DNA from: Escherichia phage Barry
Reading direction: 5' to 3' (one strand)
Sequence record: LR880803
DNA length: 64,000 nt
A program made the position numbers and the translations under genes. Under the pieces are notes generated by a model, which saw only the letters and a list, made by a program, of their open reading frames with translations, searched no databases and was not told the origin of the DNA. How positions within the stretch are numbered: position 1 is the first letter of the stretch; every line of letters starts with the position of its first letter. Shown in pieces: positions 5,603 through 30,465 of the stretch.

Positions 5603-6337
5603 ATGAAAGAGATGACAGAACAAGGTAAGGAGATTTTTAATCTCTTAAAAACTGGTAAAGGGTTCTCTAACCCGCTTATTACTGGTGCAGCAGTTCTCGG
5701 TGGAACCGTAGCTGCTTCTACATCACTTGTAAGCTCTATTAGTTCTGTAACAGACCCTACAATGAAGGAGAAACTTGTTGCTGCTGGACTTACAACAGTC
5801 CTTCTAAACAGCTTTACAACAAGCCTTACAAGCACTACAGCAACTACTAAAACTCTGACAGACTACGGTCAAAAATCTATTGATGAGTTTTCATCACGTA
5901 TGCAGGTAGCAAAGGGGTATTCCAATGTTATGGGTGCAGCAGGAGAACAAGTTGGTTGTACACCATTCAGTGGTATCATGGGTGTTGCTACAGAGTATGG
6001 TCAAAAAGCTATTGACATGATGAACAGTACACTAGATAGTGTTAATGGTGTGTTAAGTGACTTACAAGATGCTATTGATAAGGGTCTTGATACTGTTTCT
6101 GATTTAGCTAACCAAGCTGTCAGTAAGATTAATGAAGGTATTTCAAAGATTACAGCTTATGCAGATGAAGTTGTGCAGATGATTGAAGAAGAAGCTGCCC
6201 TTATTGCAGAGTACCTTAAAACGAATATCAATGGGTTCTTAGCAGGTATCTTACCAGACTGGTTTGACGATGCTTGTAAAACTGGTGTGATTGACACTAT
6301 TGCAACACCAGAAATGAAGAGCGCATTACAGAAATAA
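5603..6337 (+). CDS. hypothetical protein (Thr/Ser-rich N-terminal half, alpha-helical C-terminal half)
   Basis: ATG at 5603 with SD aaaggtg; the track start at 5540 overlaps tRNA-Phe and is rejected. Confidence 0.5.
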   Translation: MKEMTEQGKEIFNLLKTGKGFSNPLITGAAVLGGTVAASTSLVSSISSVTDPTMKEKLVAAGLTTVLLNSFTTSLTSTTATTKTLTDYGQKSIDEFSSRMQVAKGYSNVMGAAGEQVGCTPFSGIMGVATEYGQKAIDMMNSTLDSVNGVLSDLQDAIDKGLDTVSDLANQAVSKINEGISKITAYADEVVQMIEEEAALIAEYLKTNINGFLAGILPDWFDDACKTGVIDTIATPEMKSALQK

Positions 6338-6338
6338 T

Positions 6339-6431
6339 GGAAGATTAACCCTAAAAGGTAAGGGAGCAGTTTGCTAAACTGCCAGTAGCTGAGAAATCGG
6401 TGTACCAGTTCAAGTCTGGTATCTTCCTCCA
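6339..6431 (+). tRNA. tRNA-Ser (anticodon GCT), long variable arm
   Basis: 93 nt; perfect acceptor ggaagat/atcttcc, perfect anticodon stem gcagt/actgc with loop ttGCTaa, long variable arm, T-arm ACCAGTTCAAGTCTGGT, CCA encoded. Confidence 0.75.
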
Positions 6432-6435
6432 ATTT

Positions 6436-6511
6436 GAATCCGTGACAGAAATGGATATGTGCCTGTCTGCAAAACAGGTTTATAAGGGTTCGAGTCCCTT
6501 CGGATTCTCCA
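6436..6511 (+). tRNA. tRNA-Cys (anticodon GCA)
   Basis: Perfect acceptor gaatccg/cggattc, perfect anticodon stem cctgt/acagg with loop ctGCAaa, T-arm AAGGGTTCGAGTCCCTT, CCA encoded. Confidence 0.75.
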
Positions 6512-6608: not shown

Positions 6609-6673
6609 ACAGAGTTATACTTTATAAGAAGGCTTATACAGTATGTCTCTGACGTACATTGTGGTTTCTCCTT

Positions 6674-6698
6674 GACGGTCTCTGTGCCGTCTTTTTTA
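6674..6698 (+). terminator. rho-independent terminator
   Basis: Hairpin gacgg-tctctgtg-ccgtc followed by TTTTTT. Confidence 0.5.
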
Positions 6699-6733
6699 AG
6701 GAGAAACATGGTTAATTATTTGGAGAAAACATA

Positions 6734-6934
6734 ATGAGTGAGACCGTTTATAAAGAACTTTATGAAGCTAACAAAAAGCTAGAATTTATGCAGAACACTA
6801 TCATGGCAATTGCAGATAGATTATCTGTAGCAACAGGTATTGATATCAAAGAAGCCTCTATGGATGCACTTCTTGATGCTGTTGATGCAAAGTTCGAAGT
6901 TAAGAAAGAAGAGACTGCTACAGACTCTGAATAA
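6734..6934 (+). CDS. small acidic protein (possible terminase small subunit or accessory; function unknown)
   Basis: 66-aa ORF with SD ggagaaa, immediately upstream of the terminase large subunit. Confidence 0.4.
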   Translation: MSETVYKELYEANKKLEFMQNTIMAIADRLSVATGIDIKEASMDALLDAVDAKFEVKKEETATDSE

Positions 6935-6955
6935 TTCTATTTGCGGAGGTGCTTA

Positions 6956-8557
6956 ATGGACTTAAATGCTGTTAAGCAGAAGCGAGTGGAAGATGTTAGG
7001 AAAGTCCTAGCTGGAGAGTTGGGGCTTTCTGATGAAGTAAAAGAAATTATCAAATCATTCGGTAAAGACCCCTCTAAATTCCTTCCAACTCAAATTCTGA
7101 CTTTATTAAGATACACACCAGACCAAGTTCGCCTTATCTTTAAATTGATGACTGATAAGAACTATGTAGCCCCTCAACCGGGTTCTCAAGAGGTCTTTTT
7201 AAACACTAATGCTGACTTGGTTCTTTATGGTGGTGCTGCTGGTGCTGGTAAAACTGCTGCATTGTTAATGGACTCTTTAAGATTTATTGAAGACCCTAAC
7301 TATAATGCTGTATATTTCCGTCGAAATACAACACAGTTACAAGGTGGTTTATGGCCTGCTGCAAAGAAACTATTTGGTAAGTTTGGTGGGATTCCTCATG
7401 AGCAGAAAATGACTATCACATTCCCTTCTGGGGCGACTATCAAGTTTACCTATCTAGAACTTGAAAAGCACGCTGAAGGCCATCAGGGTATTGAATACTC
7501 AGCTATTTACTTTGACGAAGGTACACACTTCTCTGCTTCACAGATTTCATACCTACAAACCCGTCTACGTTCTGGTGCTGAAGGTGATTCATACATGAAG
7601 ATTTCCATGAACCCAGATAGAGACCACTTTATTTACGATTGGGTAGAACCATTCTTAGATGAAGAAGGTTACCCAGACCCTGAAAAGTGTGGTCGTATTC
7701 GTTGGTATGTAATGAATGATGGTGTGATGGTTTCTGATTGGGAGAGAGACAAGATTCTTGAAATGTTCCCTCTTGAGATTCCTCAAACATACACCTTCAT
7801 CTCTGGTACGATTGATGATAACCCAATTCTTGACTTCTTAGAACCAAAGTATCGCGGTAAGCTTGAAAACAACACCCCTGTAAACGTTGCAAGACTTCGT
7901 TTCGGTAACTGGAAGGCTCGTGCAGAAGGTTCAAACTACTGGCAAAGACAATGGTGTGAGATTGTTGATTCACTCCCAGAAGATATATTTGATGTTAGAG
8001 CATGGGACTTAGCAGCAACTTTACCATCTGAGGTTAACCCTAATCCAGACTGGACAGCAGGTGTTAAGATGGGTAAATCTAAAAAAGACGGTTGCTATTA
8101 TATCATTGATGTAGTAAGATTTAGAGATAGACCCTCTGGAGTCGAAACACAAATTAATTTGACTGCTGAAAGTGACGGTAAGCGAACTGGTATTTTTATC
8201 CCTCAAGACCCAGGCGCTGCTGGTAAATCCTACGCAACATCCCTCATCAGGAAACTTGCTGAGAAAGGCTATCGTGCAAGAGCTAAACCAACAAATAAAG
8301 ATAAAGTTACCCGATTTGCGGGGTTTTCTGCTGCTTCTGAAGCTGGACTTGTAAAAGTTTTGAGAGGTAGTTGGAACGAAGCTTATTTCCAAGAGCTTGA
8401 AGGCTTTTGTGGTGATGGCAAAACTAAAGATGACCAAGTGGATGCTACCAGTGATGCTTTCAACAGTCTTAACGAAGTTAAATTATTCAAGCCACCATCA
8501 ATGGGTGCTCACACAGACTTAGTGAGGGGAAATCCATATGAGGGGCTTAGACGTTGA
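6956..8557 (+). CDS. terL: terminase large subunit
   Basis: Walker A LYGGAAGAGKT near the N-terminus plus a C-terminal nuclease-like region; ATG at 6956 with SD ggaggtg. Confidence 0.8.
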   Translation: MDLNAVKQKRVEDVRKVLAGELGLSDEVKEIIKSFGKDPSKFLPTQILTLLRYTPDQVRLIFKLMTDKNYVAPQPGSQEVFLNTNADLVLYGGAAGAGKTAALLMDSLRFIEDPNYNAVYFRRNTTQLQGGLWPAAKKLFGKFGGIPHEQKMTITFPSGATIKFTYLELEKHAEGHQGIEYSAIYFDEGTHFSASQISYLQTRLRSGAEGDSYMKISMNPDRDHFIYDWVEPFLDEEGYPDPEKCGRIRWYVMNDGVMVSDWERDKILEMFPLEIPQTYTFISGTIDDNPILDFLEPKYRGKLENNTPVNVARLRFGNWKARAEGSNYWQRQWCEIVDSLPEDIFDVRAWDLAATLPSEVNPNPDWTAGVKMGKSKKDGCYYIIDVVRFRDRPSGVETQINLTAESDGKRTGIFIPQDPGAAGKSYATSLIRKLAEKGYRARAKPTNKDKVTRFAGFSAASEAGLVKVLRGSWNEAYFQELEGFCGDGKTKDDQVDATSDAFNSLNEVKLFKPPSMGAHTDLVRGNPYEGLRR

Positions 8558-18214: not shown

Positions 18215-26230
<8,016 letters not shown>

Positions 26231-26232
26231 TA

Positions 26233-27381
26233 ATGGCAGTAGGTGAAATTCAAATTAGTGCCTTGCCTCAAGCAGCCTTACCAATTGACCTTAGTGATAT
26301 CTTCCATCTTAAACAGGGTATCGAGGATAAGAGATGTACTCTTGAGCAATTACTTGCCCCACACTCAAGCCTAAGAAATAATCCTCATGGTGTTACTAAG
26401 ACACAAATTGGTTTAGATAACGTTATTAATGCTCTACAGTTAGTTGCTGAAAATAACTTATCAGACATTGTTAATGTAGCTGAGGCAAGAGCAAATCTAC
26501 AGATTATGTCTTCAGAAGAGGTTAATAATCTTATTCAACAACATATTGATGATAAGAGCAACCCACACAACACCACTAAGGCACAGGTTGGGTTAAGTAA
26601 TGTTCAGAACTGGGTGACATCTAACCTTTATAATGAGGATGCAGATAAGTATGCTACAGCAAGAGCAGTAAATAACTTGTACAAGGCTGTTCAGGCTTCT
26701 TATCCAGTAGGTACTATCCATCTCTCTATGAATCCTGCAAACCCTTCTACATATTTAATTTGTGGAGGTACTTGGGAGTTAGTTTCAAAAGGAAGAGCAC
26801 TTGTAGGTTATGATAGTGCTTCTAGGCCAGTTGGTTCAACGTTTGGTTCGCAGACTACTGCACTGACAGTTAACAACATTCCTGCACATACTCACTCAGT
26901 ATACGTCACTGGTGGTGGTCACACACACGGTGCAACGGCCTCTATCAGTGCTTTTGACTACGGTACTAAAGGGACTACAACGTTTGACTATGGAACAAAG
27001 ACTGTATCTACTTATGACTATGGTAACAGAACAACCAGTGCTGCTGGTTTAACACAAACAACATTCATTAATCGTGGTTATGCTGATGGTGGTTGGAGAG
27101 GTTTATCAGTTGAGGGGGCAAGCTATGACCCAAGAGCTACGCTGACAACAGCTAACAACCACACTCACTCTGTAGCAATTGGTGCGCATAATCACACAGT
27201 TGGTATTGGTGCTCATAGCCATTCTGTTGCAATTGGTTCCCACAACCACTCAGCAACAGTAACAGTAACCGGAGCAGGTGAGCATTCGCACTCTGGCACA
27301 ACTGGCACAACTGGTTCTGGTCAAGCATTTAGCGTTGAACAGCCATCCTTCGTATTGTATGTATGGCAGAGAACAGCTTAA
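26233..27381 (+). CDS. tail fiber protein with C-terminal HxH repeat tip domain
   Basis: C-terminal third has repeated HTHS/HNHT/HSHS motifs and ends GSGQAFSVEQPSFVLYVWQRTA, paralogous to the end of the next gene. Confidence 0.65.
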   Translation: MAVGEIQISALPQAALPIDLSDIFHLKQGIEDKRCTLEQLLAPHSSLRNNPHGVTKTQIGLDNVINALQLVAENNLSDIVNVAEARANLQIMSSEEVNNLIQQHIDDKSNPHNTTKAQVGLSNVQNWVTSNLYNEDADKYATARAVNNLYKAVQASYPVGTIHLSMNPANPSTYLICGGTWELVSKGRALVGYDSASRPVGSTFGSQTTALTVNNIPAHTHSVYVTGGGHTHGATASISAFDYGTKGTTTFDYGTKTVSTYDYGNRTTSAAGLTQTTFINRGYADGGWRGLSVEGASYDPRATLTTANNHTHSVAIGAHNHTVGIGAHSHSVAIGSHNHSATVTVTGAGEHSHSGTTGTTGSGQAFSVEQPSFVLYVWQRTA

Positions 27382-27389
27382 TTTCTTTA

Positions 27390-27412
27390 CAGGGGCTTTA
27401 TAGCCCCTTTTA
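27390..27412 (+). terminator. rho-independent terminator
   Basis: Hairpin aggggct-ttata-gcccct followed by TTTT. Confidence 0.5.
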
Positions 27413-27427
27413 AGAGGAAAATTTATA

Positions 27428-29779
27428 ATGGCAGATTACAAGTTGAGTGAATTAAACTCAATTGATACAATTCGTTCAGACGACCTTCTTCATGTCAGGG
27501 TTAAAAAGAGACCTGAAATGCTGGGTGATGAAGACCGTCGAATGACCTATCAAGACTTCTTAGCATCTTTTAAACTAGAAAGGTTTGTCCAGATTGCTGG
27601 TAGCACTATGACGGGTGACTTAGGAATTGTCAAGTTACTTTATGGTGGTAAGGCAGTATTTGACCCTACAGGTTCTTCTGAGATTACTATGGGGGATGTT
27701 TTAAAGGCTTTTAAAATCAATGCAAATGGTCTTAAACTAACTATTGCAGATGCTTCAAGGTCTGCAACTGTTTACCATACTCTTAATAAGCCAAGCCCTA
27801 ATGAACTTGGGATGAGAACTAATGAAGAGAATGATGCAAGATATGCAAGGTTGGCTGTAACAAACACATTCTCTAGAAATCAGAACATTCAAAGTGATGG
27901 TAATGCACTTCGCCTTAGAAACCAGATTGCAAATAATGCACAATACATTGAGGGTGTAAACCTAGATGGTTCAGCTAGATGGTGGGTTGGTATTGGTAGC
28001 AATGGCGAGGATGCAGTAAGCCTGTATAACAGCAAATACAACTCAGCAGTGATTGTTGCAAGCAATATCTCTGTTAATAAGTCTTTAGCAATCACTGGTC
28101 AAGTTCAGCCTTCTGACTTCTCTAACTTAGATGCTAGATACTTTACTCAGACAGCAGCTAATCAGAGATTTGCGCAGTTAGTTGGTAATAATACCTTCAG
28201 TGGTTTAAACACATTCAGTAATAATGTTAATGTGAACTCTGATGGTGCTGCTATCATTCTAAAAAATAAAACGGCCAATGATACTCTGTTCATCCTAGCA
28301 AGAGACAGTGAAAACAATAATTTGTGGTATATTGGTAAAGGTGATGTAACCTCTAATATCACGATTTATGATTATAATGGTGACACTTCTATTAAATTAA
28401 ACGCGTCTGGTGTAACATTTAATAAGGGTGTAAAAATCACTGGTCAAGTACAACCTTCTGATTGGACTAACATTGACTCTCGTTATGTTCTTATTGGTTC
28501 ATACGCAAATCTTGCTAAGAAGAATGAAGCTAACACATTCACTTTACAGCAGAATATTCAATCTGATGGTGAAGCATTAAGAATCTACAGCAAGGCTCAG
28601 AATAATTCTTCTTACATTGTTGGTAAGAATACTGATAACACAAATAAGTGGTTTATCGGTTGTGGTACTAATGGTTCTGGTACGGCATCATTCCATAACT
28701 ACTTGACTGGTGCAAGACTCGATTTAGCTGACGAAATTCTTCTGTCTAAATCTCTACAGATTACTGGACAGGTAAAACCTTCTGATTGGTCTAACTTAGA
28801 TGCTAGATACTTCACTCAGTCAGCAGCTAATCAGAGATTCATGGTTGCAGGTTCTACAGGAGAAGCTACAGAGCAGAATGCAGATGGTGTGGCATGGAAC
28901 GCTAAAACAGGCTTATATAATGTAACATCACCAAATGGTGATTACACATCACTTGTATTTCAAATGTATCAGGGAGTGTCCTCTTCTACTGCCTGTGCGC
29001 AACTAAAGTTCCAGTATAAAAATGGTGGGATGTGGTACAGAACATCTGTAGACAGTAAAGGTTTTGAGGCTAAGTGGTCTAAGGTTTACACAGAGGCTCA
29101 GAAACCAACCCCTTCAGAGCTTGGTGCATACACTAAAGCTGAAACTGACCAGAAGATTGCACAGGCAGTAAGTGACTCTACAGACCTTAACAAAATCTAT
29201 CCAGTGGGTATTGTGACGTGGTTTAACAGTAATGTTAACCCTAATACAGCACTGCCTGGTCTAACTTGGACGTATCTGAACAATGGTGTTGGTAGAACTA
29301 TCAGAATTGCAGCAGCAAACGGTTCAGATGTTGCTACAACTGGTGGTTCAGACTCTGTGACGTTAGCTGTTGGGAACTTGCCTTCACACACTCACAGTTT
29401 TTCTGCGACTACCTCATCGTTTGACTACGGAACAAAAAACACTAACACGACTGGTGCTCACACACACTCTGTAAGTGGTTCTACTTCATCTGCTGGTAAC
29501 CACAACCACGCTATCTCGTGGATTGGTCAGAACTCTACACACTATTCTGGTGGTGGTGGTGGTAAAATCGGTACAGGTCCGGGTTACACTGATGCTGCTG
29601 GTGCGCACACCCACACAATCTCTGGTACTGCTACTTCTGCTGGTAACCATGCTCACAGTGTTGGTATTGGTGCTCACAGTCATACAGTTAGTGGTAACAC
29701 TGGTGGTACAGGTTCTGGTTCAGCATTTAGTGTTACTAACCAGTTCTATAAGTTAATGGCTTGGGTGAGAACTGCTTAA
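27428..29779 (+). CDS. long tail fiber protein with internal repeat modules and C-terminal HxH repeat tip domain
   Basis: 783 aa; three copies of ITGQV(Q/K)PSD(F/W)(S/T)N(L/I)D(A/S)RY; C-terminus has HTHS/HNHA/HAHS repeats and ends [22 protein letters not shown]. Confidence 0.7.
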
Positions 29780-29858: not shown

Positions 29859-30053
29859 ATGCCTACAATCCTAGCAATTCTTCTAAAAAATCTAGGTAGT
29901 TTCTTCTGGAAACTCATTTTATCCCTTCTGAGTGAATACATGATTGAGAAAGTGTTCTTTAAGCTTGCAAGATACCTTGCGAGTAAAACAGACACACCTA
30001 TTGATGATGAGTTCGTAGATAACTTAGAAAGAGCTTTTAAGGGGGAGAAATAA
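29859..30053 (+). CDS. small membrane protein (possible holin-like)
   Basis: 64 aa with hydrophobic N-terminus and charged C-terminus; located after the tail fibers. Confidence 0.3.
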   Translation: MPTILAILLKNLGSFFWKLILSLLSEYMIEKVFFKLARYLASKTDTPIDDEFVDNLERAFKGEK

Positions 30054-30431: not shown

Positions 30432-30465
30432 AAGGCTCCCGTAAAAAGGAGCCTTTTTGTTTTTA
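30432..30465. terminator. bidirectional terminator between convergent modules
   Basis: Hairpin ggctcc-cgtaaaa-ggagcc followed by TTTTTGTTTTT; sits between the plus-strand late genes and the minus-strand block. Confidence 0.55.

Follow-up and report, generated by a model that had tools for sequence, protein, structure and literature searches.

T4 gp37-type tips on both side fibers of Escherichia phage Barry and likely exchange of long-fiber blocks at conserved joints

Introduction

The side fibers of two Felix O1-like myophages have recently been described by cryo-electron microscopy (cryo-EM). Bas63, published in 2025, carries a 430-Å short fiber (gp26) and a 630-Å long fiber (gp27) that have a collar, needle, and head like those of T4 gp37 and bear seven and six di-histidine (HxH) motifs, respectively; the shaft comprises a baseplate-binding domain and β-helix repeats with helix-and-turn joints (PMC12609058). 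Sf14, likewise published in 2025, has the same two fibers and no homologs of the Mu fiber chaperones (PMC11821841). Here, we analyze the corresponding fiber genes at positions 26233 to 29779 of a 64,000-nucleotide (nt) stretch of Escherichia phage Barry (record LR880803), which is referred to as a whole as the window.

The model for the tip of both fibers is T4 gp37, in which H929 and H931 are iron ligands, seven irons lie along the needle, and plaques no longer form with the substitutions H929A and H931A (PMC6957217). The T4 fiber is built of four proteins, with gp37 as its distal quarter, and gp37 requires the chaperones gp38 and gp57A (PMC6957217), whereas the fibers considered here consist of one protein each. 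That the shaft repeats vary was "not expected" by the Bas63 authors, whose proposed explanations were tolerance of mutations, variable recognition of hosts, and escape from defense (PMC12609058). Both the Bas63 and the Sf14 papers put variability down to sequence variation or tip divergence and describe no block exchange, joint breakpoints, or transfer between positions. Several Felixounavirus genome papers mention fiber variability, without block analysis, and the PhageMaP preprint and a 2026 receptor screen contain nothing specific on these fiber genes.

We conclude, with a probability of roughly 0.8, that Barry carries two side fibers with T4-type tips and that conserved joints in the long fiber serve as crossover sites for the exchange of shaft blocks, an internal domain slot (slot D), and the needle head among relatives. 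The HxH tip was already described in 2025 for near-identical proteins, and the proteins themselves have GenBank entries; the comparative point about block exchange is of modest novelty.

Results

Two adjacent genes encode the side fibers

The list of open reading frames (ORFs) gives two adjacent plus-strand ORFs in this region, placed as in an earlier note on this DNA:

26233..27381, plus strand: short tail-fiber gene, 382 amino acids (aa); ORF; homolog of Bas63 gp26 ("STF") and Sf14 gp52; PHROG 2097 tail fiber (E = 1e-127)
27428..29779, plus strand: long tail-fiber gene, 783 aa; ORF; homolog of Bas63 gp27 ("LTF") and Sf14 gp53; PHROG 4277; Pfam gp37_trimer (three matches), gp37_C, and Gp10_C

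The region codes for both side fibers of a Felix O1-like myophage (Felixounavirus). The window is 99.9% identical at the nucleotide level to Escherichia phage fjerdesal, the long fiber protein is 100% identical to the Barry and fjerdesal fiber proteins, and the window matches 241 phage records, nearly all of them Felix O1-like (hosts Escherichia, Salmonella, Shigella, and Citrobacter). Judged by homology, the pair belongs to the two-fiber set of Felixounavirus and the Ounavirinae (Bas63 gp26 plus gp27 type).

Both fibers end in HxH-rich tips homologous to T4 gp37

The earlier note had proposed that both fiber genes end in paralogous domains full of spaced HxH motifs, followed by a conserved terminal segment, and that these resemble the metal-coordinating needle tip of T4-type long tail fibers. 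All of these points hold up. The relevant features are as follows:

26653..27012, plus strand: short fiber collar and ascending needle strand (aa 141 to 260), with HxH at 219 and 230, FDYGTK repeats, and a Pfam Gp10_C match at aa 154 to 260
27013..27159, plus strand: short fiber needle-tip "head" (aa 261 to 309), matching the position of the T4 head domain in the alignment; the most variable stretch
27160..27291, plus strand: short fiber descending needle strand, with five HxH (aa 310, 319, 328, 337, and 351), including a 27-nt (9-aa) periodic unit
27292..27381, plus strand: short fiber conserved C-terminal segment, leading back to the collar; aligns with the long fiber and T4 gp37 C termini; conservation 0.84 to 0.96
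29093..29377, plus strand: long fiber conserved junction and collar (aa 556 to 650); conservation ~0.9; Gp10_C match at 588 to 695; aligns with the T4 gp37 collar
29378..29707, plus strand: long fiber needle, with six HxH, enclosing the variable head (aa 681 to 735, nt 29468 to 29632); 2XGF match at aa 652 to 762
29708..29779, plus strand: long fiber conserved C-terminal segment and stop codon; one type among 119 fibers; aligns with the short fiber and T4 gp37 C termini

The short fiber has seven HxH motifs (aa 219, 230, 310, 319, 328, 337, and 351), compared with a mean of 1.0 and at most 5 when its sequence is shuffled. The long fiber has six (aa 654, 678, 692, 727, 741, and 750; shuffles, mean 0.3, maximum 4), and all four tetrapeptides quoted in the note (HTHS, HNHT, HSHS, and HAHS) are present. 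Three or more HxH occur in only 2 of the window's 66 ORFs of at least 100 aa, namely, the two fibers; every other ORF has at most one. Part of the descending strand is also a tandem repeat at the DNA level (period 27 at 27175 to 27253; repeat family D1). Residues 157 to 382 of the short fiber align with residues 591 to 783 of the long fiber at 32% identity over 233 aligned positions (E = 4e-15), and the terminal segment common to both reads GSG(Q/S)AFSV...W(Q/V)RTA.

Homology to T4 gp37 covers the collar, both needle strands, and the C-terminal strand. A phmmer search against the PDB matched 2XGF (T4 gp37 residues 785 to 1026) to long fiber aa 652 to 762 (E = 3.3e-15) and to short fiber aa 146 to 352 (E = 3.2e-14). 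By blastp against T4 gp37, long fiber residues 585 to 779 align with residues 807 to 1019 (38% identity, E = 1.6e-29), and short fiber residues 146 to 352 align with 802 to 1013 (E = 2.5e-25); the short fiber collar region aligns with T4 gp37 residues 802 onward and with the T4 gp10 C terminus. The T4 needle has seven HxH (883, 915, 929, 966, 980, 989, and 998), and the six motifs of the long fiber align, in order, with the first six of these, so that H692/H694 correspond to the T4 ligands H929/H931. T4 HxH 998-1000 is without an equivalent in the long fiber, and the head sequences are unrelated to those of T4. In the alignment, the short fiber retains the first and the last four T4 HxH positions and adds two more.

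To follow the motifs among relatives, two comparison sets were used. The first consisted of 10 GenBank relatives and about 30 IMG/VR Ounavirinae contigs, which yielded 41 short and 38 long fibers; the second, independent set comprised 119 long fibers from a protein database, with block types defined at 85% identity. All 14 motif histidines of the short fiber are kept in 40 to 41 of the 41 short fibers, and none of 57 homologs, some with as little as 28% identity, departs from H219, H221, H337, or H339. In the long fiber, four HxH are invariant in 38 of 38 sequences, and the two beside the head are kept in 32 of 38 and absent from nearly the same sequences: 692/694 is lost together with 727/729, along with the head block. 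The needle columns around the histidines average a conservation of 0.71. This conservation of the histidines is strong, if indirect, support for metal sites and falls short of proof.

The number of motifs varies within the family. Short fibers have 7 HxH (15 sequences, including that of the window) or 9 (26 sequences), and long fibers have 6 (31 sequences), 4 (6 sequences), or 7 (1 sequence); those with 4 lost the two motifs beside the head.

A third HxH-bearing virion protein is encoded elsewhere in the window. The 207-aa plus-strand ORF at 22557 to 23180 ends in ...NEHTHHYYW..., with H188-T-H190 (aa 188 to 191). This matches the HxH (H188 and H190) in the central puncturing needle of Bas63, which is considered a likely iron site (PMC12609058).

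Conserved joints close the modules of the long-fiber shaft

The earlier note had also described three ~90-nt direct repeat modules in the long fiber gene, around 28090, 28440, and 28760. Their existence and positions stand. The copies lie at 28074 to 28140, 28419 to 28485, and 28743 to 28809 (75% identity), copies 1 and 3 extend to 93 nt (83% identity), and in a blastn search against the whole window, copy 1 matches copy 3 at E = 5e-23 and copy 2 at E = 7e-8; the encoded peptides start at aa 222, 337, and 445 (nt 28091, 28436, and 28760). Two details need correction. The ending ARYFTQ is found in copies 1 and 3 only, as copy 2 departs from the consensus at its end, and the repeats are not free-standing modules. 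They are the conserved C-terminal ends of three PF20744 (gp37_trimer) modules at aa 158 to 247, 275 to 363, and 381 to 472 (108.9, 64.5, and 81.8 bits; E = 1e-31, 9e-18, and 4e-23; 219 bits summed, against a curated threshold of 21.7) and form the joints between modules, with the consensus ITGQV.PSD.(S/T)N(L/I)D.RY at the end of each. The shaft is divided as follows:

27428..27847, plus strand: conserved N-terminal part (aa 1 to 140), ending in joint c0; conservation 0.88 to 0.98 in 38 fibers; 2 types among 119
27848..28087, plus strand: shaft block A (aa 141 to 220), core of gp37_trimer module 1 (PF20744 aa 158 to 247); 11 to 15 types
28088..28177, plus strand: repeat 1, joint c1 (aa 221 to 250); repeats D2 and D3; conservation 0.87 to 0.89; breakpoint peaks on either side
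28178..28432, plus strand: shaft block B (aa 251 to 335), gp37_trimer module 2 (PF20744 aa 275 to 363); 20 to 21 types
28433..28507, plus strand: repeat 2, joint c2 (aa 336 to 360); repeat D2; breakpoint peak
28508..28747, plus strand: shaft block C (aa 361 to 440), gp37_trimer module 3 (PF20744 aa 381 to 472); 18 to 26 types
28748..28813, plus strand: repeat 3, joint c3 (aa 441 to 462); repeats D2 and D3; 83% identical to repeat 1 over 93 nt
28814..29092, plus strand: domain slot D (aa 463 to 555), here of gp37_C type (PF12604; PDB 8JU3)

The architecture published for Bas63 carries over directly to both fibers. By analogy with the Bas63 structure, aa 1 to 140 would be the baseplate-binding region and the first shaft segment. 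The Bas63 paper equates the shaft repeats with the rod of T4 gp34 (PDB 5NXH; PMC12609058). Here, the three PF20744 matches are significant, blastp of the long fiber against T4 gp34, gp35, and gp36 gave no hit at E ≤ 0.01, and the likeness to gp34 rests on that paper. Block C has a weak match in the PDB to the T7 gp17 pyramid domain (4A0T/4A0U).

Slot D holds a domain of a different kind. PF12604 (gp37_C) matches at aa ~477 to 580 (72.6 bits, E = 2.9e-20; curated threshold, 22.5 bits), PDB 8JU3 (Mu S/S') matches at E = 1e-16, and the domain is 37 to 43% identical to segments of Mu S, P1 Sv' (in the invertible segment), and P2-like H fibers. Among relatives, the slot is occupied, in the same frame, by at least four mutually unalignable classes, and relatives with other classes match only the last ~35 to 50 positions of the PF12604 profile, which are the shared junction. 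One class, of ~155 aa (RIRSTGFNNGNGEKWVKIATV...), is found in the 843-aa long fibers L005 (finno), L012 (momo), L030, L036, and L039; it gave no significant sequence match in the PDB, and its Pfam matches are confined to the shared junction. The skuden-type and JK55-type domains are two further classes.

In the N-terminal half of the short fiber (26233 to 26652), the motif NPH(G/N)(V/T)TK(T/A)Q(I/V)GL(D/S)NV(I/Q)N is repeated at aa 50 to 66 and 110 to 126. The Bas63 paper describes "triple alpha helix and turn" joints in the short fiber, without intervening β-helix modules, and this motif is probably their counterpart.

Blocks between the joints are old alleles in many combinations

The short fiber is 98 to 100% identical in seven close GenBank Felixounavirus relatives and 85 to 87% identical in two Suspvirus phages. 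Over all 41 short fibers, most of the variation falls in the head (aa 261 to 309), with a conservation of 0.38 to 0.50 versus >0.9 over most of the N-terminal 200 aa. The long fiber varies along the shaft as well. Across the 38 sequences, conservation is ~0.9 at aa 1 to 140, 221 to 250, 341 to 360, 441 to 460, 556 to 680, and 741 to 783 and ~0.25 to 0.7 in A (141 to 220), B (251 to 335), C (361 to 440), D (463 to 555), and the head (681 to 735). The islands of conservation coincide with the three repeats, a partial "copy 0," and the junction of D with the collar.

Comparison of fiber genes among relatives, the check for domain swaps that the note had suggested, revealed a block mosaic. The 119 fibers contain 11 types of block A, 21 of B, 26 of C, 25 of D, and 12 of the head (12 to 13 over both sets), versus two types each of the N terminus, joint c1, and the collar and a single C terminus. 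These occur in 82 distinct combinations, with up to 54 four-gamete violations per block pair. Among the close relatives, finno has blocks A and B in common with the window and differs in C and D; heid has C and D in common and differs in A and B; JK55 shares C alone, and bumzen shares D alone. In 29 fibers with one common backbone, block identities are bimodal, at ~30 to 40% or ≥70%. Bas63 gp26 and the short fiber here are 98% identical and agree in all seven HxH positions, and gp27 has the length class, six HxH positions, N terminus, collar, and C terminus of the long fiber; its overall identity is only 71% because blocks A, C, and D and part of B are different alleles.

Divergence is far older in the differing blocks than in the shared parts. 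Between the window and heid, synonymous divergence (dS) is 0.06 in the N terminus, 0.02 in C, and 0.07 in D but 1.31 in A and 3.0 in B, with a nonsynonymous-to-synonymous ratio (dN/dS) of <1; other genome pairs show the same pattern in different blocks. Against heid, JK55, and bumzen, dS is 1.3 to saturated in block A, with flanks at ~0.06, and 2.5 to saturated in block B. In block C, it is 0 to 0.02 against heid and JK55 and 0.9 to saturated against finno, bumzen, and skuden. That block dS lies so far above that of the shared parts indicates imported old alleles rather than products of local mutation. Together, the comparisons find bounded variable segments, independent assortment, and older divergence inside the segments, the pattern of motif-anchored block recombination of the T-even "His box" type.

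Nucleotide identity switches sharply, within tens of bases, at 27831 to 27849, at the edges of 28108 to 28181 (repeat 1), at 28459 to 28462 (repeat 2; heid, JK55, and finno), at 28795 (repeat 3; JK55 and bumzen), and at 29092 to 29152. The stretch at ~28108 to 28181 is an island of 98.5 to 100% identity in most close relatives. An all-pairs breakpoint scan gave peaks at the joints and at aa 651 to 680 and 741 to 760, the invariant HxH stretches flanking the head; the largest peak, at 29078 to 29137, is at the D/collar junction.

Blocks have also moved between positions. Block A of contig L014 (gene nt 432 to 721) and block C of L039 (nt 1101 to 1390) are 94% identical over 290 nt, from the "NTF" of the upstream joint to the "RYFTQ" of the downstream joint. 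Their dS is 0.148, close to that of the backbone (0.167), versus 1.14 and 1.83 for the in-register A and C blocks. An older case is Bas63 block A and finno block C, with 80% identity over 272 nt, and the window's own block A shows 76% identity to blocks at position C in two other phages. Amino acid identity is 80% or more in 38 A-versus-C pairs of the larger set, and it is never above 54% between A and B or between B and C. More directly than any other result, these A-to-C matches argue that the repeats within the gene are used in addition to allelic homology. Exchange also reaches across genera. Between the window and Suspvirus SUSP2, dS is ~1.1 in the backbone but 0.52 in block C, 0.20 in joint c3, and 0.21 in the head, which indicates that these parts crossed genus boundaries more recently than the backbones diverged.

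The earlier note had seen the repeats as substrates for recombination that reshuffles receptor-binding domains. The mosaic bears out the exchange; the parts that are shuffled are the shaft blocks, slot D, and the head, and the HxH needle and collar are conserved. The repeats are nearly invariant among relatives, a result that the note would have counted against recombination, yet that test was ill-posed, as near-invariance is expected of a recombination anchor.

Two other sources of variation were considered. No case of unequal crossing-over between repeats that changed the number of modules was seen; the two length classes of long fiber, ~780 and ~843 aa, are due to the longer domain class in slot D. 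A diversity-generating retroelement fits poorly with saturated change at all site classes, unalignable domain classes, and sharing of whole blocks; neither a reverse transcriptase nor a template repeat was searched for.

The long-fiber ORF is interrupted in two of the IMG/VR Ounavirinae contigs, L027 (gene from 5223; 541 aa) and L032 (5218 to 6579 plus 6626 to 7561; 453 plus 311 aa). These could be sequencing errors or real truncations; apparently truncated long fibers are reported for phages EC6 and Si3 in the Bas63 paper (PMC12609058).

Genetic neighborhood

Upstream of the short fiber are baseplate genes (Baseplate_J and DUF2612-like) and then a 100-aa ORF. The long fiber gene is followed by a 64-aa ORF and a holin-like gene and then by genes for thymidylate synthase and dihydrofolate reductase in convergent orientation. 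The gene order in the window is that of fjerdesal and Bas63 (JohannRWettstein): baseplate wedge, 100-aa fiber-platform gene, short fiber, long fiber, small ORF, holin, thyA, and dhfr. In the Bas63 record MZ501086, the 382-aa gene is labeled "long tail fiber protein" and the 784-aa gene "tail fiber protein," which is the reverse of the cryo-EM naming and a possible source of database confusion.

The 46-nt gap between the fiber genes contains, just 5' of the long-fiber ribosome-binding site, a G+C-rich hairpin (27393 to 27412; GGGGCT-TTAT-AGCCCC) followed by TTTT. It could be a partial terminator or an RNA-stabilizing element that fixes the ratio of the two fibers; it is absent from the list of a consensus scan because it has only four T residues. 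Promoter and terminator scans of the region gave counts not above those of shuffled sequence.

The 64-aa ORF (29859 to 30053, plus strand; PHROG 402), which separates the long fiber from the holin-like gene, has a hydrophobic N terminus. The Bas63 and JK55 annotations include it, and the fjerdesal record does not; heid, bumzen, and momo have a different 114-nt ORF annotated there. The order of fiber, small gene, and holin echoes that of T4 genes 37, 38, and t. Between the convergent holin-like and thymidylate synthase genes, a hairpin at 30432 to 30455 (AAGGCTCC...GGAGCCTT) with T runs on either side looks like a bidirectional terminator. At 1257 to 6511, ARAGORN finds 26 tRNA genes on the plus strand; the entry for fjerdesal in the table of Olsen et al. 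is 21.

Discussion

The reading that we prefer joins a T4-type tip on both fibers to a modular shaft in the long one. The shaft consists of three gp37_trimer modules (A, B, and C) and a fourth slot, D, with each module closed by a conserved joint. Cocirculating relatives have conserved DNA in the N-terminal part, the joints, the collar, and the HxH stretches, so that homologous recombination between phages can cross over there and would swap whole blocks (A, B, C, D, or head) for anciently diverged alleles. The copying of a block from position A to position C is accounted for by the joints, which also repeat within the gene. Fiber length and architecture would be kept while the surface is recombined.

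Related arrangements are found in other phages. In the T-even phages, the His boxes and glycine islands of gp37 and gp38 were reportedly recognized by Tetart, Desplats, and Krisch in 1998 as recombination sites at conserved motifs. The principle is alike, in that short conserved motifs in a fiber gene bound variable segments that are swapped, and the head here is bounded by invariant HxH stretches. Unlike at the His boxes, exchange here mostly concerns mid-shaft gp37_trimer modules and slot D, takes place at ITGQV.PSD...RY joints, and includes transfer between A and C. In Mu (S/S'), P1 (Sv'), and P2-like (H) fibers, alternative distal parts are exchanged, as are the alternatives in slot D, which in this long fiber is a PF12604 domain. 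Mu and P1 switch by site-specific inversion within one genome, whereas the slot-D alternatives reside in different phages and are exchanged by homologous recombination. The slot-D domain is, moreover, internal and followed by a T4-type needle, unlike in the Mu, P1, and P2-like fibers.

Several points weigh against a specific role of the joints in crossover. The breakpoint histogram comprises 1530 steps that are not independent events, and it partly restates where conservation ends. A crossover can be placed only within the conserved stretch between two informative blocks, and its location inside the joint is what we infer. Structural demands alone may account for the conservation of the joints, whose dS of 0 to 0.2 resembles that of the backbone rather than falling below it and shows no extra synonymous conservation; and no long fiber with more or fewer modules was found among the relatives.

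The joint dS and the fixed number of modules also speak for a somewhat unlikely alternative, which departs from the preferred reading in inferred function only. Here, the blocks do recombine, the repeats are conserved only for the structure of the trimeric joint, their use in crossover is incidental, and the blocks are interchangeable spacers without a role in host recognition. The short fiber has the same helix-and-turn motif without intervening blocks, receptor contact of the T4 type is at the needle head, which is itself variable here, and both module number and fiber length are fixed, all as this explanation would have it. Neutral spacers are, however, unlikely to persist as 11 to 26 deeply diverged allele classes under purifying selection (dN/dS, 0.2 to 0.55), and their spread between genera, as seen in block C and joint c3 of SUSP2, would be unexpected. 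Slot D, in addition, carries the domain of the host-range-variable parts of Mu, P1, and P2-type fibers. The many old alleles under purifying selection, together with this domain, suggest a surface role for the shaft blocks, and a part in host recognition would be in keeping with it.

With regard to the tips, we infer from the alignments that both bind iron. In both fibers, as in T4 gp37, three chains would form the collar, extend as a six-stranded β needle to a small head, and fold back; each needle level of HxH from three chains would enclose one iron, so that the short fiber would contain seven irons and the long fiber six, and these would keep the thin needle together. Some results do not favor this assignment. 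A single-chain AlphaFold2 model of the short fiber (57-sequence alignment) was poor, with a mean predicted local distance difference test score (pLDDT) of 61.8 and a predicted template modeling score of 0.29, and only its collar was confident (pLDDT, ~80 to 90). When this model was compared with the PDB by Foldseek, no match reached E ≤ 0.001 and 2XGF was not among the hits; the weak matches were gp10-type collars (9F4B, 5IV5, and 2FKK) and a Bizionia C24 protein (E, ~1). Such a model is unsuited to metal sites because it represents one monomer of an intertwined trimer. The HxH layout of the short fiber is 2 ascending plus 5 descending, versus 3 plus 4 in T4, and its alignment with T4 is uncertain around aa 230 to 310. 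For the 98%-identical Bas63 short fiber, low-resolution cryo-EM with AlphaFold 3 fitting supports the fold and not the metal, as the fiber density is too coarse for side-chain (rotamer) modeling and iron is unproven there also (PMC12609058).

It is quite improbable, nonetheless, that the HxH motifs here do not bind metal and merely reflect an inherited β-strand sequence habit or a histidine-rich low-complexity bias. Metal has not been directly observed in any Felixounavirus fiber, the side chains being unresolved in the Bas63 maps, and the number of motifs differs among relatives (7 or 9 in short fibers; 4, 6, or 7 in long fibers). Against this, the motifs can be aligned with the HxH of T4 gp37, where H929/H931 are established iron ligands, and the histidine columns are far more conserved than their neighbors. 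Loss is pairwise and accompanies the head block, and the enrichment is specific to the two fibers, with 7 and 6 motifs where ~1.0 and 0.3 would be expected.

Hardly tenable is the idea that the shaft blocks vary by point mutation in place, tolerated or selected, and that the repeats are the parts unable to change: the Bas63 paper offers relaxed constraint and defense escape for the "unexpected" variability of β-helix repeats 2 to 5 and regards the joints as structurally important helix-and-turn motifs (PMC12609058), and some within-type variation is present, but dS is 20 to 50 times higher in the differing blocks than in the flanks of the same genome pair (1.3 to 3.0 versus 0.02 to 0.07) at a dN/dS of <1, block identities are bimodal rather than graded, blocks assort independently with many four-gamete violations, the classes in slot D are mutually unalignable, and one block occurs at two positions in different phages.

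For the family, simple accumulation of mutations is thereby ruled out as the source of shaft variability, in favor of exchange of old alleles at the joints, including between positions and between genera. A possible, and still tentative, extension is that the shaft is a combinatorial specificity array, in which the joints let phages trade blocks in register and between A and C, and the blocks and slot D act as side-on sites for variable surface sugars or host-defense targets. If so, host range or defense evasion would be set by the combination of blocks together with the needle tip, and the question raised by the Bas63 paper, why β-helix repeats 2 to 5 are so variable, would have an answer. 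Felix O1-like phages are used in Salmonella diagnostics, in biocontrol, and in E. coli phage cocktails. The block map and its safe junctions (c0, repeats R1 to R3, the KPTPS...TDQKIA junction, and the HxH stretches) would be a guide to engineering or predicting host range in these phages, if the blocks matter for host recognition.

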